DNA of 64,000 bases from Planctomycetota bacterium (GCA_024276195.1 JAJRXR010000031.1:4473-68472); one strand, 5' to 3'. Positions 1,605 through 60,225 are shown, counted from the first letter of the stretch. The notes: generated from the sequence alone by a model not told the origin. A program made the numbers and translations.

Positions 1605-3596
1605 ATGAGCGCTCCCGCGACGATGTCAGGCGACGCTCAAGCCCCGGCGCCGTCCGCGCCGCGCTGCATCGCCCTGCTGGGCAACCCCAACGTCGGCAAG
1701 ACCACGCTGTTCAACCGCCTGTGCGCCCTGCGCCAGAAAACCTCCAACTTCCCGGGGACAACCCAGGAAGCCCGCATCGGTTGGGTGGCGCTCGGTGACC
1801 GCTCCGAGACCTGCCTGATCGACCTCCCGGGCGTCTACTCGCTCGAGCTCGATCTGAGCGAGTCCAAGCTCTGCCGCAGCGTTCTCGATGGAAACTCGAT
1901 CCCCCCCGGCGCCCCCGCGCCCGAGGCCCAGGTCATCGTCGTCGATGCGGCCAACCTCGTGCGCAACCTCGTCCTCGCCGGTCAGGCGCTCAGACGCACA
2001 ATCCCCGGCCTCGTCGTCGTCAACATGATCGACACCGCCCGCAGGCGCGGCGTCCATGTTGACGCCAACGCGCTGAGTGACTCCCTCGGCGTTCCCGTCG
2101 TGCTCGTCAGCGCCCGCACTGGCGACGGCTTCGATCAGCTCCGCGAGGCGATGCGCTCCCCGAGCCTCCCCTCGCGCACGCCCCCCGATTCGCTCGACGA
2201 GCTCGAACGCTGGGCTGATGAGGTCTACGCCGAGGTCGGCAGCGCCCACGATGGAACAAGGTCCAGCGATCGTCTGACGGACCGCCTCGACCGCGCCTTC
2301 ACCCACCCCGTGCTCGGCGCCGGGCTGTTCGCGCTGATCATGACGGGCCTGTTCTGGGTCATCTTCCGACTCGCCGCGTACCCGATGGACTGGATCGACG
2401 CGATCTTCAGCACGCTCGGCGGGGGCGCCGAGGCCCTGCTCCCCGCGGGGATCCTGCGCGACCTGCTCGTCGATGGCGTCATCGCTGGCGTCGGCGCCAC
2501 GCTGATTTTCCTGCCCCAGATCTGCCTGCTCTTCTTCCTGATCTCGCTGCTTGAAGACACCGGCTACCTCGCCCGGGCCGCGTTCGTCATCGACCGCCTG
2601 CTCCGCCCCTTCGGGTTGTCGGGGCACGCCTTCGTCCCGCTGCTCAGCTCGCACGCCTGCGCCCTGCCCGGCATCATGGCGACCCGCGCTATCCCCGATC
2701 GGCGCGATCGCCTCGCGACCATCCTCGTGGCGCCCTTCATGAGCTGCACCGCCCGCATCCCCGTCTACGTCCTGCTCACCACCATCCTCTTCCCCGGGCG
2801 ACCCGCGATGCAGGCGCTCGCGTTCACGGGGTGCTATGTCCTGGGCGCCTGCGCCGGGCTGCTCAGCTCCCTTGTCGTGCGCCGAACCATTCTCAGGGGC
2901 AAGACCCGCCCCATGGCCCTCGAGCTGCCCAGCTACCGCCTGCCCAACCTGCGCACGGCCCTGCTCACCACCTACGACCGCGCCAAGGTCTTCCTCCGCA
3001 AGGCCGGCACGATGATCCTCGCCATCTCCATCGTCCTCTGGTGGATGGGCGAATACCCGCACTCCGACCCGCCCGCGCAGTCGATCTCCCTCCGCGAACA
3101 GGCGGCGTCGATCGAGCCCGCCGACCCCGACGCCGCGAACGCCATGCTCGACGAGGCCGCCCACCTCGAAGCGCGCCACGCCTCACGCTACAGCTTCCTC
3201 GGGCGCCTGGGCGAGGCGATCTCGCCCGTGTTTGCTCCGCTCGGCTATGACCGCCAGCTCACGGTGGGGGTGCTGGCGAGCTTCGCCGCGCGGGAGGTGT
3301 TCGTCACGACCATGGCCGTGCAGGTGATCGGCTCCGACGAGGACGACGGGGGCGTCTTCGACGCGCTCTCGGGCGCCACGCGCGACGACGGGCGCCCGAT
3401 CTTCACCGCCGCCACGAGCTGGTCGCTGCTTGTGTATTACGTCCTGGCGATGCAGTGCCTGCCCACGCTCGTCGTCACCGCCCGCGAGGCCGGCGGCGCC
3501 AAATGGGCCTTCCTCCAGCTCGCCTGGATGGGCGCCCTCGCGTATGGCCTCGCCCTGCTCGTCAACCAGACCCTGCTCGCATTGGGGGTGGCATGA
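1605..3596 (+). CDS. feoB: ferrous iron transporter FeoB
   Basis: Internal ATG at 1605 of ORF 1245..3596, just after the feoA stop. N-terminal G-domain (IALLGNPNVGKTTLFN, DLPGVYSL, NMID) followed by a long polytopic membrane domain. Confidence 0.95.
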   Translation: MSAPATMSGDAQAPAPSAPRCIALLGNPNVGKTTLFNRLCALRQKTSNFPGTTQEARIGWVALGDRSETCLIDLPGVYSLELDLSESKLCRSVLDGNSIPPGAPAPEAQVIVVDAANLVRNLVLAGQALRRTIPGLVVVNMIDTARRRGVHVDANALSDSLGVPVVLVSARTGDGFDQLREAMRSPSLPSRTPPDSLDELERWADEVYAEVGSAHDGTRSSDRLTDRLDRAFTHPVLGAGLFALIMTGLFWVIFRLAAYPMDWIDAIFSTLGGGAEALLPAGILRDLLVDGVIAGVGATLIFLPQICLLFFLISLLEDTGYLARAAFVIDRLLRPFGLSGHAFVPLLSSHACALPGIMATRAIPDRRDRLATILVAPFMSCTARIPVYVLLTTILFPGRPAMQALAFTGCYVLGACAGLLSSLVVRRTILRGKTRPMALELPSYRLPNLRTALLTTYDRAKVFLRKAGTMILAISIVLWWMGEYPHSDPPAQSISLREQAASIEPADPDAANAMLDEAAHLEARHASRYSFLGRLGEAISPVFAPLGYDRQLTVGVLASFAAREVFVTTMAVQVIGSDEDDGGVFDALSGATRDDGRPIFTAATSWSLLVYYVLAMQCLPTLVVTAREAGGAKWAFLQLAWMGALAYGLALLVNQTLLALGVA

Positions 3597-3754
3597 GCTT
3601 CCCGCTGGGCGATTGGCAGTTCTGGGTCGCCACCGCCGCGGTGTTCGCCGTCATCGCGCTCGTCGCCGCCCGTATTCGCCGAGCAACCCGCAGACGCCCC
3701 GGCGCCCGGAAGGTCAGCCTGACCATCGAGGGCGAGAAACGCCAGCGTCGGTGA
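3593..3754 (+). CDS. small FeoB-associated membrane protein (hypothetical)
   Basis: The ATG overlaps the feoB stop (ATGA at 3593-3596). 53 aa with one TM segment (FWVATAAVFAVIALVAA) and a basic tail. Confidence 0.4.
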   Translation: MSFPLGDWQFWVATAAVFAVIALVAARIRRATRRRPGARKVSLTIEGEKRQRR

Positions 3755-3779
3755 ACTTGGCAACGCTTCTTCCGTACGC

Positions 3780-4049
3780 TTGGTTATGACACAGGGATCA
3801 TCGAGCAGCTCACTCCTTCTCATCGTGGTATGGAGTGGGCTTGCCGTATGTGCCTGGAGTGGGTGTGGCCCAAACGTGACACTGGATCTCCCGAATGGCT
3901 ACTCGCTCGTAGTGATGAACGCACGCGATCGGGGGATCACTGGACCAGAGTACGGCGTGGTTGGGCGCCTCTCTGTGTACCGAGTGGATGCGAAAGGTGA
4001 CCTGGTATTGGAACGTACTGCGACCCAGAGGACGATTCCTACACTGTAA
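3780..4049 (+). CDS. hypothetical lipoprotein (possibly the 5' half of a frameshifted gene)
   Basis: Signal peptide plus a lipobox-like WSGC motif. The local patch has lower G+C. Confidence 0.35.
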   Translation: MVMTQGSSSSSLLLIVVWSGLAVCAWSGCGPNVTLDLPNGYSLVVMNARDRGITGPEYGVVGRLSVYRVDAKGDLVLERTATQRTIPTL

Positions 4050-4060
4050 ATGGCTACTTC

Positions 4061-4297
4061 GTGATCGATACCCGCGCTCAGACTCACGCGGAGTACGAGA
4101 CTGAGTTTGCGTGGCGGGACGCCCTCGCAGAAAAAGGAGTTCGGAAGATCAATCTGCGATGGCCAAGTGCTTTCTGGAGGCCAGAGCCCTTCCCCTGGCG
4201 AAAAGCCGTATGGGGCATAGTCCTTGTTGGATCAGGACTTCTCTCGGTTTGGTTTATCCGTCGGATCGTGAAGACTCGTCGGGAGCGACTCGTTTGA
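4061..4297 (+). CDS. hypothetical C-terminally membrane-anchored protein (possibly the 3' half of a frameshifted gene)
   Basis: GTG start, C-terminal TM ([17 protein letters not shown]). The upstream frame is open from 4001 and overlaps the end of 3780..4049. Confidence 0.3.
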
Positions 4298-4310
4298 TTA
4301 TCATCTCCCC

Positions 4311-4973
4311 ATGCCACTCACTCGCGAACAGATCACCAAACGTGCCGCCGCCGAACTCCGCGACGGCTACATCGTCAACCTTGGCATCGGCATGCCCACC
4401 CTCGTCGCCAACCACATCCCGGACGGCATGGACGTCTGGCTGCAGAGTGAGAACGGCCTGCTCGGCATCGGCCCCTTCCCGACGGAAGACAACATCGACG
4501 CCGACCTCATCAACGCCGGCAAGCAGACCATCACCGCACGCCAAGGCGCCAGCTACTTCTCCTCCGCCGATTCTTTTGCCATGATCCGAGGCGGGCACAT
4601 CGACATGTGCATCCTCGGCGCCATGGAAATCAGCCAAGGCGGCGACATCGCCAACTGGATGATCCCCGGCAAAATGATCAAGGGCATGGGCGGCGCCATG
4701 GACCTCGTCGCCGGCGTCAAAAAAGTCGTCGTCACCATGGAGCACGTCTCGCGCAAGGGCGACCCCAAAATCGTCCCCGCCTGCACCCTCCCCCTCACCG
4801 GCCTCGCCTGCATCGACCTGATCATCACCGACCTGTGCGTGCTCGAGTTCGACAGCGACGCAAACCGCTTCCGCCTGACAGAACTCGCCCCGGGCGTGAG
4901 CGTCGATGAGGTCAAATCCAAGACGAGCGCCGAGATATTGACCGATCGCAAGCCGGTTGAGATGAGCGTGTGA
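4311..4973 (+). CDS. scoB: 3-oxoacid CoA-transferase subunit B
   Basis: [23 protein letters not shown] and GGAMDLV motifs, including the catalytic-Glu region (SENG) typical of ScoB/AtoA beta subunits. Confidence 0.95.
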
Positions 4974-4974
4974 A

Positions 4975-5328
4975 ATGGAATCCGATTCGGGTAATGACGG
5001 CACGTTCTTCCGAGTCGATACTGAGCAGGCGCCACCAATCTATGTCCACGCGATCTCACACAACAAGGCTCGCGCGGCGGTTGCAAAGAGGGGTCGCAAG
5101 GTCAAGCTTGTGACACAGGTCAAAGCGAGTTCGATCCCACCTGACGCGGTTCTTCTGGACGTGCTGACTCCCCCCGGACCGGCTACGGAAACATCTTTCA
5201 TTGCTCGAGCGGCCATCATCCGTCACCCGTACATCACGATCGCGATTGGGGTTGTGCTCGGGAATCTCCTGACGTGGGGCGTGCTCATCGTGCTCGCGGG
5301 CATGTTCGGCGGGATAAGCATCGGATGA
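4975..5328 (+). CDS. hypothetical membrane-anchored protein
   Basis: Starts 2 nt after the scoB stop. C-terminal TM segments (ITIAIGVVLGNLLTWGVLIVLAGMFGG). Confidence 0.4.
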   Translation: MESDSGNDGTFFRVDTEQAPPIYVHAISHNKARAAVAKRGRKVKLVTQVKASSIPPDAVLLDVLTPPGPATETSFIARAAIIRHPYITIAIGVVLGNLLTWGVLIVLAGMFGGISIG

Positions 5329-6266
5329 CGGCTCAAGGCCTGCAATCTACCAGCACCATCCTCATGGTCCGCCCAGCCGCGTTCGGGTCCAACCCGTCAA
5401 CCCTCGCCTCCAACGCCTTCCAGAGCCAAGCGGTGGGGGACGCTGCGCAGATTCACGCGCAAGCGATCCAGGAGTTTGACGCGCTGGTCGAGACTCTGCG
5501 CGCCGCGGGGGTGAACGTCATCACAGTTGATGACACCCCGTTTCCGCCTAAGCCCGATGCCGTCTACCCCAACAACTGGTTCACGACCCACGCGGACGGG
5601 CGCGCGATCCTGTACCCGATGCTTAGCCCGTCGCGCCGCCTCGAACGCCGCCCGGAGCTGCTCGAGTCCGCCGCGCGCTCGGCGGGCCTCGACCTTCGCA
5701 TCATCGACTCCACCCTCGTCCGCGAGTTCGAGGGCAAGGGGAGATATCTTGAGGGCACGGGCTCGATGGTCCTCGATCGTGCGAACAAAATCGCCTACGC
5801 CTGCCGCTCGCCGCGCACGGACGAGGGCGTCTTCAACCGTCTCTGTTTGATGCTCGCCTACGAGCCCGTTCTCTTCGACGCGACCGACGCCAAGGGCGGC
5901 GCCTACTACCACACCAACGTCATGCTCTCGCTCGGCGCCGACTTCGCCATCATCTGCCTCGAAGCGGTCAACGCCGACCAGCGCGTAGCTGTTCGCCAGC
6001 GCCTCGAATCCACCGGGCGTGAGATACTCGACATCACCCGCGAGCAGGCCTCCACGTTCGCCGCCAATGTTCTCGAACTCCGCGCCGGCTCGGGAAAGCG
6101 TGTTCTCGCCCTCTCAAGTGCCGCCCTCGCCGCTCTGGGCAAGCACGCCCAAACCCTCGCAGGCAAGGGTCTCACCCTCGCCCACGCCCCGATCCCCACC
6201 ATCGAACGCTTCGGCGGCGGCTCCGCCCGGTGCATGATCGCCGAGCTCTTCCTGCCCCGCCCCTGA
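5325..6266 (+). CDS. guanidino-group-modifying (amidinotransferase / arginine-deiminase-type) enzyme, CtlX-like
   Basis: ATG at 5325 overlaps the upstream stop (ATGA). Shows NxxF.TH.., YHTNVM and the C-terminal GGGSARCMIAE catalytic-Cys motif of the GME superfamily. Confidence 0.7.
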   Translation: MTAQGLQSTSTILMVRPAAFGSNPSTLASNAFQSQAVGDAAQIHAQAIQEFDALVETLRAAGVNVITVDDTPFPPKPDAVYPNNWFTTHADGRAILYPMLSPSRRLERRPELLESAARSAGLDLRIIDSTLVREFEGKGRYLEGTGSMVLDRANKIAYACRSPRTDEGVFNRLCLMLAYEPVLFDATDAKGGAYYHTNVMLSLGADFAIICLEAVNADQRVAVRQRLESTGREILDITREQASTFAANVLELRAGSGKRVLALSSAALAALGKHAQTLAGKGLTLAHAPIPTIERFGGGSARCMIAELFLPRP

Positions 6267-6370
6267 TCGCCTTGCCCGCCTCTTGCTTGCGCCCAAGGTG
6301 ACCCGCTACCCTTGCCAAGCCGCCCGAGGGGGCGGGACCTCATCCATTTCCAACACCAGGAGAGTGAACC

Positions 6371-6781
6371 ATGGCCAACTACCCCATCCAGGATGTCGAA
6401 GGCATCGGCCCGTCCTTCGGCGCCAAGCTCGAAGCCGCCGGCATCAAAGACACCGACGCCCTGCTCAACGCCTGCAAAACCCCGGCTGACCGCAAATCGC
6501 TCAGCGAGAAATCCGAGATCGGCGACAAGCAGATCCTCAAGTGGGCCAACATGGTCGATCTCTACCGCGTCAAGGGCATCGGCAGCGAGTACTCCGAGCT
6601 GCTCGAAGCCTCCGGCGTGGACACCGTCCCCGAGCTCGCCCAGCGCAACGCCGCCAACCTCGCCGCCAAGATGATGGAGGTCAACGACGCCAAGAGCCTC
6701 ACCCGGCGCGCCCCGAGCGAGAAGGAAGTCGCCGGCTGGGTTGACCACGCCAAGACCCTCGACCGCGCCCTGCACTACTGA
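6371..6781 (+). CDS. DUF4332-type helix-hairpin-helix protein
   Basis: Two repeats of the motif (DVEGIGPSFGAKLEAAGI.. and RVKGIGSEYSELLEASGVDTV..ELA). GGAG lies upstream of the ATG. Confidence 0.65.
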   Translation: MANYPIQDVEGIGPSFGAKLEAAGIKDTDALLNACKTPADRKSLSEKSEIGDKQILKWANMVDLYRVKGIGSEYSELLEASGVDTVPELAQRNAANLAAKMMEVNDAKSLTRRAPSEKEVAGWVDHAKTLDRALHY

Positions 6782-6813
6782 TCCGGCGCAGCCGCATCGC
6801 CTCAAAATAAACA

Positions 6814-6850
6814 CCGCCCCGGGGACGTCCTCGGGGCGGTTGTTGTTTTC
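6814..6850. terminator. rho-independent terminator between convergent genes
   Basis: 11-bp stem ccgccccgggg/cctcggggcgg (one G-U pair), 4-nt loop, then ttgttgttttc. Confidence 0.7.
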
Positions 6851-6876
6851 GCGTTATAGAAAGCTCGCCCGCGGGC

Positions 6877-7659
6877 TCAGGGGCCTTCGCCGCCCGCGTC
6901 GTCGCCCGTCTCATCGTCCGAGTGATCGTCGTCGGCGTCGTGCTCGTGGTCATCGTCGCCGTCGTCGTCGCCATCGCTCAGCGCCCGATCAATCGCGGCC
7001 CGGATCTCGTCGGACACGTCAAACACAACGCGCTCGTTGGGAATCTCCGCCGCGTCCGCCGCCGCGACCGCGTTGGCGATCACCTCGCGCAGCTCGTCGT
7101 CCGTGCAATCCTTCGGCGCCTTGAGGTGCAGCGTGAACTTCGGGTGGTTGATATGCACGCCCGGGCCGGTCGTGTTCACCGTCTTGATCGGGTCGAAGAT
7201 GTCCGCCAGCGGGTCCGCCTCGATCTTATCTTCAGACACCGCCTGCGCGACGCGCGACAGCGCCAATCCGCCAGCTTCCTTCTCCTCATCCGAAAGCCCG
7301 GATGGCGCCAGGTACATGCTCTCGAACCCGCCAACTCTCGCCGCCGGGATCAGCGGCCCCTCGGCGATGTCCGTCCCGATCTCGATGAACTGCTTGAACG
7401 AGATGTCGCCGCTCTTGAACCCATCCGTCAGGCGCGTGACTTCGGCCAAGACCTCTGTTTTTTCGCTCTCGGGCAGATCCGACGCCTGGATCGCTTGCTC
7501 GGCGACCGACTTGATCCCAGCCGAGACCCAGCCCTTCCCGTTTATCACGACGATCACAACGCCCACAATGACCAAAACCACCAGAACACCGAGAACAATC
7601 AGGCAACCCGCCAGCGCGCCGCCGCGCCGCTGTGAGTACCGCTTCAAACTGTGAGACAT
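6877..7659 (-). CDS. membrane-anchored protein with poly-acidic C-terminal tail (hypothetical)
   Basis: Internal ATG at 7659 (MSHSLKRY..), one N-terminal TM, C-terminus DGDDDGDDDHEHDADDDHSDDETGDD. Confidence 0.55.
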   Translation of the reverse strand: MSHSLKRYSQRRGGALAGCLIVLGVLVVLVIVGVVIVVINGKGWVSAGIKSVAEQAIQASDLPESEKTEVLAEVTRLTDGFKSGDISFKQFIEIGTDIAEGPLIPAARVGGFESMYLAPSGLSDEEKEAGGLALSRVAQAVSEDKIEADPLADIFDPIKTVNTTGPGVHINHPKFTLHLKAPKDCTDDELREVIANAVAAADAAEIPNERVVFDVSDEIRAAIDRALSDGDDDGDDDHEHDADDDHSDDETGDDAGGEGP

Positions 7660-7778: not shown

Positions 7779-9062
7779 ATGCCGACCGCCCAACCCGCCC
7801 CTTGGTTCGACGCCCACCTGGATCTGGCCTATCTGGCCGAGAAGGGGCGCGACATGCACGCCCCGCTGGACGACTGCCGAGGCCCGCTCCAGCCCGCGAG
7901 CGTCACGCTCCCCTCGCTCCGCGATGGCGATGTCCGCGCCTGCCTGGGCACGATCTTCACCGAGGGCGTTCAAGACCCGACTGCTCACGACGCCGAGACG
8001 GGGGCGCATGTCTATGCCCTGGGCGACGCCGAAGGCGCCTACCGCGCCGGCATGCGCCAGCTCAAACTCTACAACGCCTGGGCGGGCGCGGGCGTGATCG
8101 AACTCATGCCCTGCAAACCGCAGGACTCCAGTCCTGCGGCTTTCAACAACGCCTCTTCCTCCCTCTCCCCAGCGGGACGTGTCGCCAGTAGCGGGGCTCC
8201 GTCTTCATCCTCGCCTTCCTCCCTCTCCCCCTTGGGGAGAGGGCGGGGTGAGGGGTCTTCCTCCTCTTCCTCCTCTTCCTCTTCCTTGCCTTCCTCCCTC
8301 TCCCCTCCTGGGGAGAGGGCCGGGGTGAGGGGCTCTTCTTCTCCCTCCCCCCTCCGCCTCGGCGTCCTCGTCGAGTGCGCCGACCCCATCCCCTCGCCCG
8401 ACGAACTCCCCGAGTGGGACGAGCAGGGCGTTGTCGCCATCGGCATGGCCTGGTGGCACGAGTCCCGCTACGCCGGCGGCAACGGGACCGACAACCTCGG
8501 ACTCACCGACCTCGGGCGCGCCCTCATCCCCGCCATGGACGCGCTCGCCGTCGTCCACGACCTCTCGCACCTCTCCCAGCGCGCAACCGACGAACTGCTC
8601 ACCCTGACCGACGCTCCGGTCATTGCCAGCCACTCCAACTGCCGCTCGCTGCTCGGGGGCGAGGCCAACCCGCAGCACCTGCGCCATCTCAGCGACGACA
8701 CCATCCGCGAGATCGCCCGGCGCGGCGGCGTCATCGGCCTCAACCTCATCCGCAACTTCATCCGCACAGGCCTCGACCGCAACAACCCGTCCGACCGCCC
8801 CAGCGCCGACGATGCCGTCGCCCACGTCGAGCACATCTGCGAACTGGTGGGCGATCGGCGCTGCGTCGGGCTCGGCTCCGACATGGACGGCGGCATCACC
8901 GCCAACGACCTGCCCGCCGCCATCAACACCCCCAGCGACCTGACCAAACTCACCGACGCCCTGCGCGCCCGCGGCTGGAACGCCGACGACCTCGCCGCCT
9001 TCCGCTACGACAACTGGATTCGCTTCTGGGGCGTCAAATCAGATCACTTGGAGCAAGCCTGA
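7779..9062 (+). CDS. membrane (renal-type, M19) dipeptidase carrying a ~75-aa low-complexity insert
   Basis: FDAHLDL at the N-terminus, VHDLSHLS, VIASHSNCRSL and GLGSDMDG match the M19 metal-ligand regions. The Ser/Pro/Gly-rich insert is encoded by REP palindromes at 8119-8333. Confidence 0.8.
   Translation: MPTAQPAPWFDAHLDLAYLAEKGRDMHAPLDDCRGPLQPASVTLPSLRDGDVRACLGTIFTEGVQDPTAHDAETGAHVYALGDAEGAYRAGMRQLKLYNAWAGAGVIELMPCKPQDSSPAAFNNASSSLSPAGRVASSGAPSSSSPSSLSPLGRGRGEGSSSSSSSSSSLPSSLSPPGERAGVRGSSSPSPLRLGVLVECADPIPSPDELPEWDEQGVVAIGMAWWHESRYAGGNGTDNLGLTDLGRALIPAMDALAVVHDLSHLSQRATDELLTLTDAPVIASHSNCRSLLGGEANPQHLRHLSDDTIREIARRGGVIGLNLIRNFIRTGLDRNNPSDRPSADDAVAHVEHICELVGDRRCVGLGSDMDGGITANDLPAAINTPSDLTKLTDALRARGWNADDLAAFRYDNWIRFWGVKSDHLEQA
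8119..8140. repeat. short perfect hairpin inside the dipeptidase insert
   Basis: ccgcaggac-tcca-gtcctgcgg, a 9-bp stem. Confidence 0.8.
8214..8255. repeat. REP-like palindromic element, copy A
   Basis: ccctctcccc(8221-8230)-ctt-ggggagaggg(8234-8243), followed by cggggtgagggg. A left-arm-only half copy sits at 8153-8170. Confidence 0.85.
8289..8333. repeat. REP-like palindromic element, copy B
   Basis: ccctctcccc(8296-8305)-tcct-ggggagaggg(8310-8319)-ccggggtgaggggctc. Nearly identical to 18575..18618. Confidence 0.9.
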
Positions 9063-10396: not shown

Positions 10397-11212
10397 ATGC
10401 CAACGACCGAGCCTAGCACGACCACCCCCTCCGCGCCCGCCCCCGATGCGCCCGCGTGGCAGGGCCAATCGCTCGATAGCGTCCACACCCGGGGCGACAA
10501 AGCCCCGCGCGTCCGGGCCATGTTCGCCGCCATCGCCCCGTCCTATGACCTGAACAACCGCCTCCACTCGTTCGGGCGTGACCAGGCCTGGCGCCGCGCC
10601 GCCGTCAAAGCCGCCGCGATCCGTCCCGCCGACCGCGTCCTCGACGTCGCCTGCGGCACCGGCGACCTCACCCAGGCCCTTGCCAAAACCGACGCGAGCG
10701 AAGTCGTCGGCCTCGACTTCACCCGCCAGATGCTCGACATCGCAGAGTCAAAGCAGAAACGCCTCAGCCCCGAGCAGTCAACGAAGATCACTTATAGAGA
10801 AGGCGATGCCCAGGCCCTCCCCTTCGACGATGCCTCCTTCGACGCGCTGACCATCGCCTTCGGCATCCGCAACGTCCAGCACCCGCCCCAGGCCCTGCGC
10901 GAGTTCGCCCGCGTCCTCAAGCCGGGCGGGCGACTGGTGATCCTCGAGTTCGACCGCCCGCGCTTCGCCCCGGTCCGCTGGGGCAATGACCTGTATTGCA
11001 AGTGGATCATGCCCCGGACCGCCGCGTTCATCAGCCGCGACCGCTCCGGCGCCTACGCCTATCTCCCCAAGAGCGTCGCTCAGTTCATGGACCGGGGCGA
11101 GCTGGGGCGTGCCATCCTCGGCGCCGGCTTCGCAGAGCTGGTCCAGCGCCCGCTGACGCTGGGTGTCTGCGTCTGCCACAGCGCCGTGCGTGACGCTTCG
11201 AGCGTCCAATAA
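10397..11212 (+). CDS. ubiE: demethylmenaquinone / ubiquinone C-methyltransferase
   Basis: Internal ATG at 10397. MFAAIAPSYDLNNRLHSFGRDQAWRR, SAM motif LDVACGTGD and ITIAFGIRNV match the UbiE/MenG signature. Confidence 0.9.
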   Translation: MPTTEPSTTTPSAPAPDAPAWQGQSLDSVHTRGDKAPRVRAMFAAIAPSYDLNNRLHSFGRDQAWRRAAVKAAAIRPADRVLDVACGTGDLTQALAKTDASEVVGLDFTRQMLDIAESKQKRLSPEQSTKITYREGDAQALPFDDASFDALTIAFGIRNVQHPPQALREFARVLKPGGRLVILEFDRPRFAPVRWGNDLYCKWIMPRTAAFISRDRSGAYAYLPKSVAQFMDRGELGRAILGAGFAELVQRPLTLGVCVCHSAVRDASSVQ

Positions 11213-55200: not shown

Positions 55201-57350
55201 GAGGAATGACGCCCCGGGTTCGGTACGTCATCGGCGAGGACGTTCGGCTCGAACTCATCCGCGGCGCCGATCGCATCGAGACGCCTGGGGTGTACGCGGG
55301 CCTCGACCGGTACGGGCGCATCATCAACCAGATGTGGGTCAACAACAACTTTACGAACGCGACCAATCCGGCGGACCCGCTGGTGTCGCGGGCGTACGCC
55401 TATGACCGCACCTCGAATCGATTGCTCGACTACGACAACCGTCCGAACCCGGCCTTCCCTGATCGTGACTGGTGGTACGACTACGACGAGCTGGACCGTC
55501 TGAAGACCGCGTACCGGGGTGAGTTCACGGGAACGGAAACAGACCGCGATGGCTGGGCTGGTCTCAACCAGGCGACGCGCGAGACCAAGTGGTCGCTGGA
55601 GCCTGGCTCCGAGGCGTGGGATCTGGACATCCTTGGCAACTGGGACGAGTTTGACCGGGACCAGGACGACACGGCGTTCCCGCTGGGCTTCGGGCCGGAC
55701 AACGGCGAAGAGGAGATCCGCACCCACAACATGGCCAACGAGCTGACGACCTTCCAGCCGCAGACCTCGCCGAGCACTCAATCATCGGCGCATCACTTCG
55801 ATGAGTCTGGGAACCTGCGTCGTGAGCTACGGGCGGGGACAACCAGCGGCTACAAGTACACCTACGACGCCTGGAACCGCTTGGTGAAGATCGAGTACCA
55901 GAGCCCGACAGAGCTGAACACGATCGGCGAGTACGAGTACAACGGTCTGGGATGGCGGACGATCCGCCGGTACGACACGACCAAGGGGAGTTACGACGGC
56001 GTGAACGAGGAACGCCGGTACTTCTACTCTGCGGGATGGCAGGTGCTCGAAGAGCACATCGACGAGGACGGGACGGGCGCCTCGCTGAACGCGGGGGACC
56101 CTGCGGACATCGACCGGCGCGCCCAGCAGGTCTGGGGGACACGGTACATCGACGACGCGGTAGCGCGCCGCGTGGATACGGACGGCGACGGCGTGGAGTT
56201 CGAATCGCTGTATCGGTACCTGATCGATGCGCTCTTCAGCGTGCGCGGCATCGTGGACGACTCGGGGTCGGTGATCGAGTACCTGGACTACACGCCGTAC
56301 GGGGAGGACGCTGCGGGGGAGACGGTGCACCGGTACGCGGGTGATCTGGACGGGGATTCGGTGCTGACGGTGGCGGACCTGGTGCTGCTGCAAACAGCGA
56401 TCACAAACAGCGTGTACATCGCCGACGCGGACCTGACGCACGACGGGTCACTGGATTTCTCGGACATCGTGGAGATGAGCGGTCGGATCAGCGCGGGGTA
56501 CGATCTGGCGATGCCGGGGAACTGGGTGGGTGACCCCGAGCGAGCGTCGGTGGCGAGCGACAACTCGGTGGGGTACGCCGGGTACTGGGGGGATCTGGAG
56601 GCGGGGTTGTACTGTGTGCGATTCAGGCATTACTCACCGGGGCTGGGGCGGTGGATGCAGAGGGATCCAGACGGGTATGGCTCTGGGATGGGTTTATATG
56701 TCTATGCGTTGTCGTCGCCCGCTGTCTACCTTGACCCTGACGGCCTTTCGCCTGTATTCTTGGTTGCGCCAGCCGAAGCCGCTGCCAATTATCTGATTAA
56801 TCAATTCTATACAGAGGCTGTTCCACGAATTTCGCAAGCAGCGGTAGCAGCGGCTGCATTTAAGAACAAAGCGTGCTCGCTGCTTTCAAGCGTCACTAGC
56901 ATACCTGGTTATGGATGTATTACTTTGATTGTCTTTGCCGGAGATGAGTTCCTGAGTCCTCCGGGATTAGAGGCATTGGATGCGGCACTAAACTATGTAA
57001 CTGCACTCGAACTTGCATGCCAAGGCAAACTTGGAAAAGCGGGATTCTTCGCGGCATTGTCGGTAGTTGATGCTACGATTGCGCCCTATGGTGGGAAGCT
57101 CGGGGGTGCCGTTGCGGGCTTCTTTACAGGTGGCCCTGTGGGTGCCGTCATAGGTCAAAAAGCAGGCGAGGTACTGCTGGAGACGGCCGTCTGGGGTCTC
57201 CAGAACGCCATTTCGCAAGGGAGTGTATTGCCTACGCAACAGTTGTGTGATTGTATGAATGTACTAAACATGCTTGGGGCGTCGCCAGCCACGCCTCCGG
57301 TCGGTCCCTCGCAGCCAACATTAACGGATCCAGCCTTGCTCGGAAGATAG
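52269..57350 (+). CDS. RHS/YD-repeat polymorphic toxin: shell, RHS core and variable C-terminal tip
   Basis: Many YDxxGR(L/V) repeats (YDARGRL, YDDLGRL, YDGLGRR, YDDAGRL, FDERGRV...). RHS core ends at RFRHYSPGLGRWMQRDPDGYGSGMGLYVYALSSPAVYLDPDGL. Confidence 0.9.
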   Translation: MGVSEGLSGAIVRTTQYERVDTTRPDLITKSTQLSDNDTVRSAGFDFHDAAKFRPSVVTRRIDGDKASHNGPGVGSTTEVVTYELYDARGRLRWAKLADGVNEYREYEPFTGRLIKVVSNAASGDQSAGEPAPTTSNFPGLPGSLTWARPAGTFPMVREMEYDDLGRLIASTNTAGVTRYAKREVRWADTAIPTVTRGVPHMARTSLPHKLASGSNTYDGPAQITWLDAAGRSIRQSEYLLSGTPWQPVNGPEPSYALGAEVARTTAGISIAGIVESAKVWHDVLGDDSYETQFEYDGLGRRTKTTDPLGGEARQVYDIRDRVVAIYSSRGSGNGPERLVADFTYDSDQDATQGVGNSNLTFERWYVDEAGTQTRTNKRWYDFRDRLIGVENPEAPHQTFTYDDQNRVIAQASWTSSWGAGTPYTPAVGVASISTYRESSYSHRGLLYEERIAIDPTSGSTSFLETNRWYDDRGRQIALWAPNGPATKTTYDPHSRVNFARVTDRKDDVVPGVAGNHADAVDVSTDFIIEQVRYNYEVEAGIDTGLLELVSVYQRRHDFSGLGKLDSGTASDKAFQTYTGMAYDDAGRLTETLNFGTNTASNVFDSSGSAPTAPYDTDRGTNLVALIESVEFDERGRVIASIDPEGSRTETKYDDLSRRVAVIEAASGAVDPDTDITWNSTDGRWSVGWSATPPSDTDRITSFAYDGLSNVVKRVAHVSDGTTADKVQETEYVYGTTTPATPSGDLDSHISSSRLLAKVRYPDETTGDASDSGAYSVIYAYNMQGELIGMQDQMATTHVYERDGFGRVVHDRVTSTDNTLTYTVDTTVMRISASYDGHGNLSAVRSYDNDAVGSGTVQNAVGFGYTPLHQIGEVRQHPEGDVTSDPWPTLPEAAVDYTYSNKSILSGAVTGNHSRVETIRYPSDQTATTDPTLHITYAPNGVGDRISRVSKLEEITDEPTPGVYTLGDTYVAYSYAGRGMTPRVRYVIGEDVRLELIRGADRIETPGVYAGLDRYGRIINQMWVNNNFTNATNPADPLVSRAYAYDRTSNRLLDYDNRPNPAFPDRDWWYDYDELDRLKTAYRGEFTGTETDRDGWAGLNQATRETKWSLEPGSEAWDLDILGNWDEFDRDQDDTAFPLGFGPDNGEEEIRTHNMANELTTFQPQTSPSTQSSAHHFDESGNLRRELRAGTTSGYKYTYDAWNRLVKIEYQSPTELNTIGEYEYNGLGWRTIRRYDTTKGSYDGVNEERRYFYSAGWQVLEEHIDEDGTGASLNAGDPADIDRRAQQVWGTRYIDDAVARRVDTDGDGVEFESLYRYLIDALFSVRGIVDDSGSVIEYLDYTPYGEDAAGETVHRYAGDLDGDSVLTVADLVLLQTAITNSVYIADADLTHDGSLDFSDIVEMSGRISAGYDLAMPGNWVGDPERASVASDNSVGYAGYWGDLEAGLYCVRFRHYSPGLGRWMQRDPDGYGSGMGLYVYALSSPAVYLDPDGLSPVFLVAPAEAAANYLINQFYTEAVPRISQAAVAAAAFKNKACSLLSSVTSIPGYGCITLIVFAGDEFLSPPGLEALDAALNYVTALELACQGKLGKAGFFAALSVVDATIAPYGGKLGGAVAGFFTGGPVGAVIGQKAGEVLLETAVWGLQNAISQGSVLPTQQLCDCMNVLNMLGASPATPPVGPSQPTLTDPALLGR

Positions 57351-57372
57351 AGTTTGCTACAGTTCCTCTAGA

Positions 57373-57465
57373 ATGAATATGAAAATTATTCATGGCGTAG
57401 TAGTTGTTGCAATTGAAAAAGAAAATCAGAAGATTGATTTACTTAACAAGGAGTTGTCTGTGTGA
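57373..57465 (+). CDS. tiny A/T-rich ORF downstream of the RHS tip (30 aa)
   Basis: MNMKIIHGVVVVAIEKENQKIDLLNKELSV. Below the ORF-track size cut-off; read by hand. Confidence 0.25.
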   Translation: MNMKIIHGVVVVAIEKENQKIDLLNKELSV

Positions 57466-57617
57466 AACACGAGCGCGAGACACGCGGCGGCGGTGGCGAT
57501 CGATTGTATTGGTTTAAAGAGGATCGGCCAGTTCTTGTTCGACTTATATGGGCACTTATCGCGATTGCTTTATTGACCATTGTTCTGACGGTTGCGACTT
57601 TGCTTGCATTGATTTGA
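57462..57617 (+). CDS. small single-TM protein, candidate RHS immunity factor (51 aa)
   Basis: The GTG overlaps the previous stop (GTGTGA). VKHERETRGGGGDRLYWFKEDRPVLVRLIWALIAIALLTIVLTVATLLALI has one strong TM helix. Confidence 0.35.
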   Translation: MKHERETRGGGGDRLYWFKEDRPVLVRLIWALIAIALLTIVLTVATLLALI

Positions 57618-57797
57618 ATGTGAATGGCGTGGGATCCAAATATTCAGCCGCGTGCAAGTGCGATGCGACACCGGGAAAAACCCGTGGGCGCTCGGCAATG
57701 AGAGGGGCCAAGTGATGGTTCGGTGAACCGGACGTAGACCGATGGCGCATGGTCGCGTTTCAATCAGCTCGGTTTGGCGAACAAGAAAAGCTGCCCA

Positions 57798-57950
57798 GGC
57801 GGCGCGACGGTAGGAGCGGAACAGCCCCCCGAGACGCTCATCGCATTGAACGGTGCCCGCTGCCTTGGGCGATTCTTCAGATGACTCGAGCGGGACATTG
57901 CCCACGCCCTGGTGAGAGCGCTCGTGAACAGCGGATTCCAGTCGTAGATC
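57798..57950 (-). pseudogene. C-terminal remnant of an rve-type (DDE integrase core) transposase
   Basis: Minus-strand frame reads ..HERSHQGVGNVPLE....AGTVQCDERLGGLFRSYRRAA. This matches the ..ERPHQGLGN......RLGGLL..YYR.A ending of IS481/IS3-like transposases. No upstream catalytic core is present. Confidence 0.45.
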
Positions 57951-58038
57951 AGGATGCGGTGGGCTACCTGTCGGTTGTGTCAACCGGACACCCATTCAGC
58001 GAGTATGTGAGCCTCGGCAAGGACGGAGGCTACCGCGC

Positions 58039-60225
58039 ATGGGCTGCAAAGGATTGCTGCCAGTCCCCTTGGTGTTGATCGCGGCATGTTTGGCGTTGAG
58101 CACGCCTCGCAGCGCCGCTGTCCAGCCAGCCGGTGATGAGCCAGCCGCACACGTCGTCCTCAATGGTCGAGTCCCGCTGTCTCGCCTTGTCGATCTTGCG
58201 GCTGCGCAGCTCGGGCTGTCCGTGTCGTACGACGTCCAGGCGCTCCGGGCAGAGGTGACGATCCGTGTGGACGAGGGCATCTCGGGCGATGAGTTGTGGC
58301 GGCTGGTCAACGAGCAGCTCCAAGCCCACAACCTCACGACGATCCGATCAGATGATCGTGACACATTGGCGGTGGCGCCGCTCTCGGAGGCCAAGGACCG
58401 GGCCAGGATCGAGCTTGGAGACGCGCCCCAAGTTGAGGCGGGATTCCAGCGTGTGCTGCTAACGCCCCAGTCCACGGGCGCCGAGGAGATCGAGGGTCCG
58501 CTGCGAAAGCTGATCTCGCGGGCTGGATCGATTGAGCGTCTGGATCAGCGAACACTCTTGGTCAGTGATCTGACGCCGCGTCTCCGCCAGATCCGTGTGT
58601 TGCTGGGGCGGCTCGATTCCGCATCAGAGACCTCGGCCTCTCGCACACTCAAGCTCGAACATCTCGCCCCGGAGCGGGCGATCGCGTTGGTCACGCAGGT
58701 CGCCGCCAAGCGAAAGCTCGTTGGCGGACCTGACACTCCGGGCGAGTTTGTGGCGTTGCCCGATGGGAAGTCGGTGCTTGTCATTGCCCCTGAGCGTGGG
58801 CTGGACGGCTGGGAGACGCTGATCAGGGCGTTGGATCAGCTCGAGCCCGTCGAGACGCGGCACTACTCGCCGTCACACTTTGCTCTGGCGGAGACTGCGG
58901 GCCTCATTGAAGAAACGGTCAGAGGCTCCAGCTCATCCGATGGCCGCTGGCGGCTGGTTCAGGATCAACTGACGGGTTCGCTGGTCATCACGGCGACACC
59001 ATCCGACCATGAGCGCGTCCAGGCCGTGCTTGATCGGCTGGCAGCGGCTCCTGTTGAGTCTCAACGCCCGGTGCGGTCGTTTGTGGTGCGGAATCGATCG
59101 GTGACGGAGGTCGTTGAAGTGCTTCGCGGACTTATTGATGCGGGCGTGCTGGAGGCGGGCGCGTTCGAGCGTGATGACGCGGTGCGCGCCGCCGGCGCCC
59201 AGCAGAGCAGCCAAGCGGCTTCTGATCAGGCTGGACGACTCAATCAGCCGCGTCGATCGGAACAGGGGCTCAGCGAGCGTCGGGGGCCGGAGGGTATCGA
59301 TCTCTCGCTCACAGCGGACGAGGGGACGAACACGCTCATCGCTGTGGGGCACGTTCGCTTGCTGGATCAGTTGGAGGGGCTCCTCAAGATTATTGATGTC
59401 CGGCAGCCACAGGTGGTGCTTGAGGTGCTGCTCGTGTCACTGACTGACGGGCAGACGCAGGATCTGGGTGTGGAGCTCGCGGCGCTGATCAACGAGGCCG
59501 GGACAAGATTTGCGTTGGCGTCGCTCTTCGGGCTCAGCTCGGTCTTGCCATCTGATGCGGCGGCGATGCCCGGGAGCGGATCTGGAGGCACCGCGGTGGT
59601 GCTCGACCCGGGCAACTTCAGCGCTGTTATCCGTGCCCTTGAGACGGTCAATGGCGGGCGTTCGCTCTCGATCCCCCGGATCCTGGTCAACAACAACGAG
59701 AGCGGCGAGTTCAACTCGGTGGTGCAGGAGCCGTTTGCGAGCACGAACGCTTCGAATACGGTGGCGACGACGAGCTTTGGCGGTACGCAGGATGCGGGGA
59801 CGACCATCTCGATCCGGCCGCAGATCGCCGCAGGCGATTTCCTGGTCCTCGAGTACTCCGTGTCATTGAGTTCGTTCACGGGTGAGTCGGCGGATCCTTC
59901 GTTGCCGCCGCCTCGCCAGCAGAACAACCTGTCGAGCGTGGCCACCATCCCGGACGGGTACACGATCGCGGTGGGGGGGATCGAGCTGACCACCGAGGCC
60001 GAGGCGGTGAGCAAAGTGCCGCTGCTCGGTGATCTTCCAGGGATCGGAGCTTTGTTCCGGAGTACGTCGATCTCATCGAGCCAGTCCCGGTTCTATGTGT
60101 TCATCCGAGCGTCGGTCATGCGGCATCATGACTTTCTGGATCTGAAGTATGTGAGCGATCAGGAGATCCTTCAGGCCGGGGTAGACGATGGCTGGCCCGA
60201 GGTGGCGCCGAGGATCATCAAGTGA
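58039..60225 (+). CDS. gspD: type II secretion system secretin
   Basis: Signal peptide, N-domains, secretin domain ending VPLLGDLPGIGALFRS...FYVFIRA. Confidence 0.9.
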   Translation: MGCKGLLPVPLVLIAACLALSTPRSAAVQPAGDEPAAHVVLNGRVPLSRLVDLAAAQLGLSVSYDVQALRAEVTIRVDEGISGDELWRLVNEQLQAHNLTTIRSDDRDTLAVAPLSEAKDRARIELGDAPQVEAGFQRVLLTPQSTGAEEIEGPLRKLISRAGSIERLDQRTLLVSDLTPRLRQIRVLLGRLDSASETSASRTLKLEHLAPERAIALVTQVAAKRKLVGGPDTPGEFVALPDGKSVLVIAPERGLDGWETLIRALDQLEPVETRHYSPSHFALAETAGLIEETVRGSSSSDGRWRLVQDQLTGSLVITATPSDHERVQAVLDRLAAAPVESQRPVRSFVVRNRSVTEVVEVLRGLIDAGVLEAGAFERDDAVRAAGAQQSSQAASDQAGRLNQPRRSEQGLSERRGPEGIDLSLTADEGTNTLIAVGHVRLLDQLEGLLKIIDVRQPQVVLEVLLVSLTDGQTQDLGVELAALINEAGTRFALASLFGLSSVLPSDAAAMPGSGSGGTAVVLDPGNFSAVIRALETVNGGRSLSIPRILVNNNESGEFNSVVQEPFASTNASNTVATTSFGGTQDAGTTISIRPQIAAGDFLVLEYSVSLSSFTGESADPSLPPPRQQNNLSSVATIPDGYTIAVGGIELTTEAEAVSKVPLLGDLPGIGALFRSTSISSSQSRFYVFIRASVMRHHDFLDLKYVSDQEILQAGVDDGWPEVAPRIIK

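Follow-up and report, generated by a model that had tools for sequence, protein, structure and literature searches.

An RHS-borne glycine-zipper tip of a rare, uncatalogued family and its candidate 51-residue membrane immunity protein in a Planctomycetota bacterium

The window examined here, a stretch of 64,000 nucleotides (nt) from the metagenome-assembled genome (MAG) of a Planctomycetota bacterium (GCA_024276195.1, JAJRXR010000031.1:4473-68472), carries a gene for an RHS protein with an Ala/Gly-rich C-terminal tip, followed on the same strand by a 51-amino-acid (aa) open reading frame (ORF) that we designate ORF51. Downstream of ORF51, 420 nt of host-like G+C content (57618-58038) lead to a type II secretion system (T2SS) operon, the first gene of which encodes the secretin GspD (gspD). 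A first-pass annotation, made from the DNA alone, had read the tip as a membrane-targeting, pore-forming toxin outside any described family and had named two mini-ORFs behind it as candidate immunity genes. Here we describe the locus, the family of domains to which the tip belongs, and the genes that accompany this family in other bacteria. Coordinates are collected in Table 1.

The ORF at 52269-57350 encodes 1,693 aa and is an RHS/YD-repeat protein (PF05593, E = 5.5e-25; TIGR01643, E = 2e-24). Residues 1429-1493 (56553-56747) form its Rhs-associated core (TIGR03696, E = 3.7e-15), which terminates in ...YLDPDGL at nt 56747, so that the protein combines YD/RHS repeats with a core that closes in the DPxGL autoproteolysis motif. 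Among PDB sequences, the core matches the C subunits of Tc toxins as well as Tse5. The part of the frame that lies upstream, 797 aa in length, matches Pfam DUF6531 with an E value of 4.9e-4. The two parts are in the same frame, and it is an in-frame TGA at 52257-52259 that splits an RHS frame of about 2,490 codons into ORFs of 797 and 1,693 aa. Homologues of the 797-aa part are single frames of 2,500 to 2,700 aa in a genome of the same genus and in two more distant relatives, and the window RHS frame is thus interrupted between its N-terminal export/plug region and its tip. The TGA represents either a pseudogene mutation, a codon that is read through, or an error in the assembly of the MAG. 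Just 5' of the RHS core (56337-56483), the protein contains a duplicated dockerin/EF-hand-like Ca-binding motif (weak match to Dockerin_1, E = 0.16), and this insert is also kept in the RHS orthologue of a same-genus genome, G002. TssC/VipB was not found in the source genome (91% complete), which indicates that the organism has no type VI secretion system (T6SS), and no genes of an extracellular contractile injection system (eCIS) were seen in the part of the window from the RHS gene to gspD.

The tip and the DNA that follows it differ from their surroundings in composition. G+C and third-position G+C (GC3) are 0.639 and 0.81, respectively, in the RHS body, and 0.529 and 0.47 in the tip. G+C is 0.315 in the spacer at 57351-57461, G+C and GC3 are 0.487 and 0.44 in ORF51, G+C is back to about 0.61 to 0.64 from about 57655, and the values for gspD are 0.637 and 0.75. 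Composition therefore switches at 56747 and reverts right after ORF51, and the low-G+C cassette consists of the tip, the spacer, and the 51-aa ORF. The drop right after the end of the RHS core, which had been pointed out in the first-pass annotation, is borne out by both measures. The RHS orthologue in G002 is 60% identical to the window protein across the 295 residues that end in DP(D/T)GL, with no similarity beyond, and it continues into a different tip of 268 aa, followed by a gene for a 235-aa membrane protein. The general notion that RHS tips are swappable thus holds at this locus, where both sequence identity and GC3 break at the DPxGL motif, and the comparison supports the view that the tip is a swapped cassette on the RHS core. 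The tip of the orthologue (L033, G002:C3, 1621-3171) contains a hydrophobic, Gly-rich stretch of its own; behind the membrane-protein gene lie an RHH/PIN-like pair and a gene resembling those of tyrosine recombinases, and L033 does not adjoin a T2SS operon.

The source genome has two other RHS cores, and their tips are low in G+C as well. One core is located on contig C37 of the source genome (G000, minus strand, 10640-10843) within an open frame of only 312 aa, and its tip of about 180 aa is low in G+C (about 0.5), hydrophobic, and helical-looking (…LIGLFPYVGISVFIYRMINMYG…), so that it may be of a membrane type too. The other belongs to a 2,166-aa frame on contig C26 and ends in a short tip that is basic and rich in Cys.

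The right edge of the cassette coincides with a 40-nt block, TGAATGTGAATGGCGTGGGATCCAAATATTCAGCCGCGTG, that starts at the TGA stop codon of ORF51. A copy identical at 35 of 40 positions is present on the minus strand in another genome of the same genus (G003; locus L027, G003:C102, about 6721-6760), where 18 nt separate it from a preceding 114-aa ORF that is low in G+C. Of the five mismatches, three fall at third positions when the block is read in one frame (ECEWRGIQIFSRV versus ECEWRRVQIFSRV). The block may be a conserved 3' flank or a recombination point for cassettes, or it may be the start of a lost gene. In L027, the ends of a low-G+C stretch (near 6380-6420 and 8400-8470) both translate as ...DCRSGGCGFESRP, as is typical when the T-arm and 3' end of a tRNA are read as protein; this suggests an island with a tRNA gene at one border and a repeated fragment of it at the other. 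A putative transposase remnant in the window, at 57798-57950 on the minus strand, was rejected, as neither long frame had a Pfam match at E ≤ 1 and no paralogue was present in the genome.

The tip consists of 16.5% Ala, 12% Leu, and 11% Gly, and its glycine zipper, GGKLGGAVAGFFTGGPVGAVIGQKAG, has seven Gly residues at exact i+4 spacing from G116 to G140, in agreement with the Ala/Gly-rich composition and the zipper-like run noted previously. An AlphaFold2 model based on a 12-sequence alignment is all-helical (mean predicted local distance difference test score [pLDDT], 75.9; predicted template modeling score [pTM], 0.61), with helices at residues 9-50, 53-69, 72-91, 95-127, 130-157, and 163-177. 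The zipper spans the turn of the predicted 95-127/130-157 hairpin, which is the region of lowest model confidence (57 to 68). Searches of Pfam, NCBIfam, and PHROGs returned nothing meaningful for the tip, with weak matches only, to Gly-rich tape-measure segments and DUF456. The window tip had no match at E ≤ 1 to the Pfam glycine-zipper families (PF13488, PF13441, PF13436, and PF05433); the zipper segment of some of its relatives gave matches to Gly-zipper_Omp, Gly-zipper_YMGG, Gly-zipper_OmpA, and DUF6861, the best at 1.2e-5, all of which were below the cutoff. A profile of the family described below found only two chance matches at E ≤ 10 among PDB sequences (best E = 0.035). A Foldseek search with the tip model, a check that the first-pass annotation had proposed, matched nothing in PDB (best E = 1.5, TM-score 0.2) or in BFVD (best E = 0.24), and no known toxin family was found. 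The earlier statement that the tip bears no recognizable enzymatic motif agrees with all of these results.

The tip is not without relatives. A phmmer search against 1.84e9 cluster representatives gave 13 matches with E values from 1.4e-8 to 1e-3, 12 of which are real and one of which is a repeat artifact, so that the family amounts to about a dozen clusters at 50% identity. The alignment of the family (MAFFT, 14 members) defines a domain with the pattern C..C(x)C..D..P..E..DCxCN..C..G...T..DC..Gly-zipper..D...D..QNxIxQG..P..Q..C. Eight Cys residues are conserved (tip positions 43, 57, 59, 79, 81, 91, 109, and 169), E75, D78, N82, C91, D108, N153, Q157, P162, and C169 are invariant, and the center of the domain is Gly-rich and hydrophobic, with a run of GxxxG motifs. 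The window tip keeps every invariant residue, from E75 to C169, together with the zipper glycines. The family profile finds the window with E = 3.3e-44, a value that is circular since the window was included in the profile; the phmmer E values are independent of it. At four of the eight Cys positions, the window tip has T59, A79, L81, and A109, where Cys is present in 11/12, 13/14, 13/14, and 13/14 sequences, respectively, that is, in all other members. The loss of four Cys with four kept, and with the other invariant residues retained, suggests that two disulfides, or a single site formed by four Cys, were lost in an orderly manner.

Among the members whose sequence extends upstream, most have the domain directly after an RHS core end (DPLGK, DPSGL, DTSGY, and similar). 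In three members, the domain is located behind an eCIS_core/DUF4157 head: P0023 (precomputed PF13699), L007 (3501-5144, E = 1.7e-7), and L013 (924-2465, E = 1.6e-32). A gene resembling that of a CIS tube protein follows in L004. L007 is a 538-kb metagenome contig on which two genes with DUF4157 heads (3501-5144 and 6010-7287) flank a 257-aa ORF, the first of them carrying the tip family; the interval between the two has no membrane-protein gene of the immunity type. An N-terminal DUF4157 with a C-terminal toxin is a published architecture of eCIS toxins (PMC8213781). The use of one domain by two unrelated delivery scaffolds, RHS and eCIS, is strong evidence that it is a self-contained, portable toxin module.

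The family is rare. In 185,579 species representatives, a first pattern set found no loci and a second found two, in a Planctomycetaceae MAG and an Anaerolineales MAG. None of the genomes of 60 relatives harbors the family, and no RHS-length protein with the same tip was found by a word-indexed search. The first-pass annotation had suggested looking for the tip as an orphan module elsewhere in the genome; the search was made, and the source genome contains neither an orphan nor a second copy. Its proposal that the tip lies outside described families stands insofar as no catalogued family matches, and falls insofar as the tip is not unique, being one member of a family that is also found on eCIS_core/DUF4157 effectors. 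As judged from sequence comparison, the tip is one of the predicted helical toxin domains of a rare family that no catalogue lists and that is found on RHS or eCIS carriers.

Two mini-ORFs follow the tip, at the coordinates originally assigned to them. ORF51 begins with a GTG codon placed 8 nt after a Shine-Dalgarno (SD) motif, AAGGAG, and its hydrophobic segment of 28 residues reaches a Kyte-Doolittle 19-residue maximum of 2.86. Before the long ORFs of the source genome, such motifs show an enrichment of about 4-fold. When the genome (3.04 Mb; 6.07 Mb on both strands) was scanned for ORFs of this kind (40 to 120 aa, AGGAG or GGAGG located 4 to 10 nt before the start, and a transmembrane [TM] window of at least 2.4), only 12 were found, ORF51 among them, or 0.002 per kb per strand, and most of them resemble real small membrane proteins. 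The number expected by chance in a 0.3-kb gap is about 6e-4. No TM segment is present in the other frames of 57345-57760 or in other ORFs of 57351-58038, no Rfam family was detected in 57200-58100, and no plus-strand promoter or terminator was called between the tip and ORF51. A search of 5.8e9 proteins found no homologues of ORF51, a result that is uninformative for a gene so small and polymorphic. ORF51 is very likely a real gene, and, lying directly behind the tip on the same strand and specifying a predicted integral membrane protein, it is a credible candidate for the membrane immunity gene of the tip.

The 30-aa ORF has a G+C content of 0.32, no SD motif before its ATG at 57373, and no TM segment, and in one relative (L012) a spacer of similar length, 110 nt, occupies the same position. 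On these grounds, we take the 30-aa ORF to be, probably, AT-rich spacer and not a gene. Of the two immunity candidates put forward previously, the 51-aa ORF is thus retained for its SD motif, TM helix, and tip-like GC3, and the 30-aa ORF is not. The single TM helix and the GTGTGA overlap of the ORF51 start with the stop codon of the 30-aa ORF are as first described; the translational coupling proposed along with them is unneeded, as ORF51 has an AAGGAG of its own.

That the tip acts at a membrane, and that its immunity protein resides there, is supported mainly by the relatives. Downstream DNA could be read for eight of the RHS-type or orphan relatives, and in each of them (8/8; Table 1) the tip is followed by a gene for a predicted integral membrane protein. 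With the exception of the DUF3592-like proteins of L018 and L022, these partners are mutually unrelated, and ORF51 matches none of them; such polymorphism is what is expected of immunity proteins. Next to the eCIS-type members there is no membrane-protein gene, which agrees with the published finding that many eCIS toxins have no immunity genes (PMC8213781). From this pattern of neighboring genes, the tip is most likely membrane directed. The initial idea of a membrane-targeting tip with a small membrane immunity protein therefore appears right in kind, and the kind itself is already known from Tse5/Tsi5.

Table 1. Features of the window and partner genes of related tips
Feature	Position (nt)	Strand	Length	Description
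N-terminal part of RHS frame	49866-52259	+	797 aa	Sec-type signal peptide, Cys-rich region, DUF6531-like segment; from translation
RHS/YD-repeat body	52269-56747	+		Dockerin/EF-hand-like insert and Rhs-associated core, DPDGL at end
C-terminal tip	56748-57350	+	200 aa + stop	Low-G+C cassette; predicted all-helical
Conserved family domain	56874-57272	+	~130 aa	Tip aa 43-175; from phmmer matches and alignments
Glycine zipper	57090-57167	+		Tip aa 115-140; GGKLGGAVAGFFTGGPVGAVIGQKAG
QNAISQG (QNxIxQG)	57201-57221	+		Most conserved motif of the family; invariant P162 and C169 follow
Spacer	57351-57461	+		AT-rich; contains 30-aa ORF and Shine-Dalgarno AAGGAG (57448-57453)
30-aa ORF	57373-57465	+	30 aa	In AT-rich spacer
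ORF51	57462-57617	+	51 aa	Polar/basic aa 1-23; one predicted TM helix, aa 24-51 (nt 57531-57614)
40-nt block	57615-57654	+	40 nt	Starts at TGA stop of ORF51; right edge of low-G+C cassette
Partner, L003			108 aa	Hydrophobic N-terminal two-thirds and Zn-ribbon-like tail
Partner, L005/L006			200 aa	2 TM; kept beside tip fragments cut off at different points
Partner, L012			105 aa	2 TM; preceded by 110-nt spacer
Partner, L017			224 aa	4 TM
Partner, L018			174 aa	DUF3592, 2 TM
Partner, L019			112 aa	2 TM
Partner, L021			122 aa	2 TM
Partner, L022			open-ended	Runs off contig; DUF3592-like

The reading that we prefer, with a probability of roughly 0.55, is that the region from 56748 to about 57650 is a horizontally exchanged toxin-immunity cassette, composed of a membrane-pore tip and its antidote, ORF51. 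Autoproteolysis between G and L of the DPDGL motif, as deduced from the RHS core family, would release the 200-aa tip from the RHS shell. The glycine-zipper hairpin (tip aa about 95-157) would then insert into the cytoplasmic membrane of the target cell, and the inserted hairpins would oligomerize to form an ion-conducting pore or an ionophore, dissipating the membrane potential. ORF51 would be cotranscribed with the tip and translated from its own SD motif, and, as a single-pass cognate immunity protein, would act inside the bilayer to block the toxin. The step of pore formation is drawn by analogy with the C-terminal fragment of Tse5 (Tse5-CT) and Tsi5 (PMC9637101) and with the ionophores of contact-dependent growth inhibition (CDI) systems and their hydrophobic CdiI proteins (PMC11630599).

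A number of observations weigh against this reading. Neither the profile nor the Foldseek searches found any sequence or fold similarity of the tip to a characterized pore former, and the conserved polar residues (E75, D78, N82, D108, Q152, N153, and Q157) could form an unrecognized active site. The window tip is the sole member of the family without four of the eight conserved Cys residues and could be impaired. The TGA at 52257 breaks the RHS frame, and the part that bears the tip has, as assembled, no Sec signal peptide. ORF51, besides having no homologues, is shorter than the partner gene of every relative and has one TM helix, compared with two to four in the complete ones. Its TGA stop codon is the first triplet of the 40-nt block shared with G003, and this coincidence raises the possibility that ORF51 is the 5' remnant of a longer gene with two TM helices.

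Several of these observations would also be explained if the locus were in decay, with the RHS gene a pseudogene, the tip deprived of structural Cys residues, and the immunity gene cut down to its first TM helix at 57614/57615. We regard such signs of decay as possible, and the account as a whole as rather improbable. It would accommodate the in-frame TGA at a site where relatives have single long frames, the absence of C59, C79, C81, and C109 from the window tip alone, an ORF51 that ends within its hydrophobic segment exactly where the block shared with G003 starts, the two to four TM helices encoded by the partner genes of the relatives, and the lack of a second copy of the tip in the genome. 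However, the RHS frames are otherwise open over 797 and 1,693 codons with a host-like GC3 of 0.81, and the frame of the tip is open too, with all of the invariant non-Cys residues of the family retained. Exactly four Cys are lost and four are kept, which resembles the orderly loss of two disulfides and not random erosion, the TGA could be an assembly error or be read through, and the 40-nt block is known in two copies only. That ORF51 is not the immunity gene at all, but an open frame due to chance, a leader peptide, or a gene for some unrelated small membrane protein, with immunity absent or encoded elsewhere, seems unlikely to us. The absence of homologues would fit such a view, as would the eCIS-type members of the family, which have no adjacent membrane gene. 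Yet a strong SD motif, a strong TM helix, and a tip-like GC3 are combined in this one ORF, and only about 6e-4 small ORFs with such an SD motif and TM helix are expected per 0.3-kb gap. The same position holds membrane-protein genes in 8/8 RHS-type relatives, and no other ORF of 57351-58038 has a TM segment in any frame.

Another account concerns the tip itself, in which the zipper hairpin would serve for entry or translocation only and killing would be due to an unrecognized activity residing in the conserved polar and the Cys-rich portions, for example through binding or modifying a component of the envelope. Conserved acidic and amide residues (E75, D78, N82, D108 ... QNxIxQG) do flank the zipper, the eight conserved Cys suggest a folded, disulfide-stabilized extracytoplasmic domain, and the T6SS DNase Tde1 uses a glycine zipper for translocation (PMC10240207). 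We nevertheless consider this account very unlikely. The domain is small (about 130 aa), and its all-helical model shows no additional globular part beyond the zipper; the domain has no conserved His, Ser, Lys, or Arg; and the partners are all integral membrane proteins, as expected when the toxic species resides in the bilayer.

Systems of the type that we favor, a membrane-acting tip with a membrane-embedded antidote, are already known. The closest in organization is Tse5 (RhsP1, PA2684) of Pseudomonas aeruginosa, a C-terminal fragment of which, about 150 aa in length, inserts into membranes, forms ion pores, and depolarizes the cell, and whose immunity protein, Tsi5, the product of the adjacent downstream gene, is small and integral to the membrane (PMC9637101, PMC10684867). 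As in Tse5, the window tip follows the core motif, displays no enzymatic signature, and is succeeded by a gene for a membrane protein. Unlike Tse5-CT, it has no fold match (the best Foldseek hit in PDB being that given above) and no profile match at E ≤ 10 in the PDB sequences, where the one Tse5 chain listed (8cp6_B, 1,121 aa), in a library that also includes other RHS entries, ends at the core motif. Delivery also differs. Tse5 is exported by the T6SS via VgrG and a PAAR-like domain, whereas the window genome has no TssC/VipB and its RHS frame opens with a Sec signal peptide. Two TM helices are present in Tsi5 and one in ORF51, and the eight conserved Cys are a trait of the window tip family.

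The CDI ionophores (CdiA-CT EC93 family) are polymorphic helical bundles that dissipate the membrane potential and contain a putative glycine zipper, and the hydrophobic CdiI proteins that protect against them are highly polymorphic, membrane embedded, and toxin specific (PMC11630599). The mutually unrelated membrane proteins found as partners of the tip family resemble this arrangement. In contrast to the CDI ionophores, which are carried by CdiA with a VENN motif, the window tip is carried by an RHS protein with DPxGL, and no sequence similarity between them was detected. The CDI ionophores also differ from it in having separate entry domains that hijack inner-membrane transporters. Toxins of the eCIS, with a DUF4157/eCIS_core N terminus, often have no adjacent immunity gene (PMC8213781), like the eCIS-type relatives of the tip; unlike these effectors, the window copy is on an RHS protein, and none of the families named in the searched libraries corresponds to its C-terminal domain. 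EsxX, an LXG protein of the type VII secretion system, and CdzC/CdzD are glycine-zipper-dependent, membrane-depolarizing antibacterial proteins with membrane-associated immunity (PMC12744356, PMC5380434), but they employ other secretion systems and carriers and have no homology to the window tip. The type of system is thus established by Tse5/Tsi5 and the CDI ionophores, and what is new here is a rare tip family that is unrelated to them in sequence.

A broader proposal is that the family represents an unrecognized class of disulfide-stapled glycine-zipper helical pore toxins, interchangeable between Sec-exported RHS cocoons and eCIS, with the window tip as a four-Cys variant accompanied by a single-helix, 51-residue immunity protein. 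We hold this to be speculative and, on present evidence, unlikely. If true, the class would be used by phylogenetically distant bacteria (Planctomycetota, Anaerolineales, and others), and an immunity protein of 51 residues, compared with 105 to 235 aa elsewhere, would be unusually small, making the pair a minimal one in which a single TM helix silences a pore.

The practical value of the locus is modest, as the class of mechanism and the logic of toxin and immunity are already established. To our knowledge, there is essentially one studied example of an RHS-borne membrane toxin, namely, Tse5. The locus described here would add the case of an RHS protein with a Sec signal in a genome without a T6SS, as well as a compact pair in which a tip of 200 aa is accompanied by a membrane peptide of 51 aa, and the tip family would widen the catalogue of membrane-acting interbacterial toxins.

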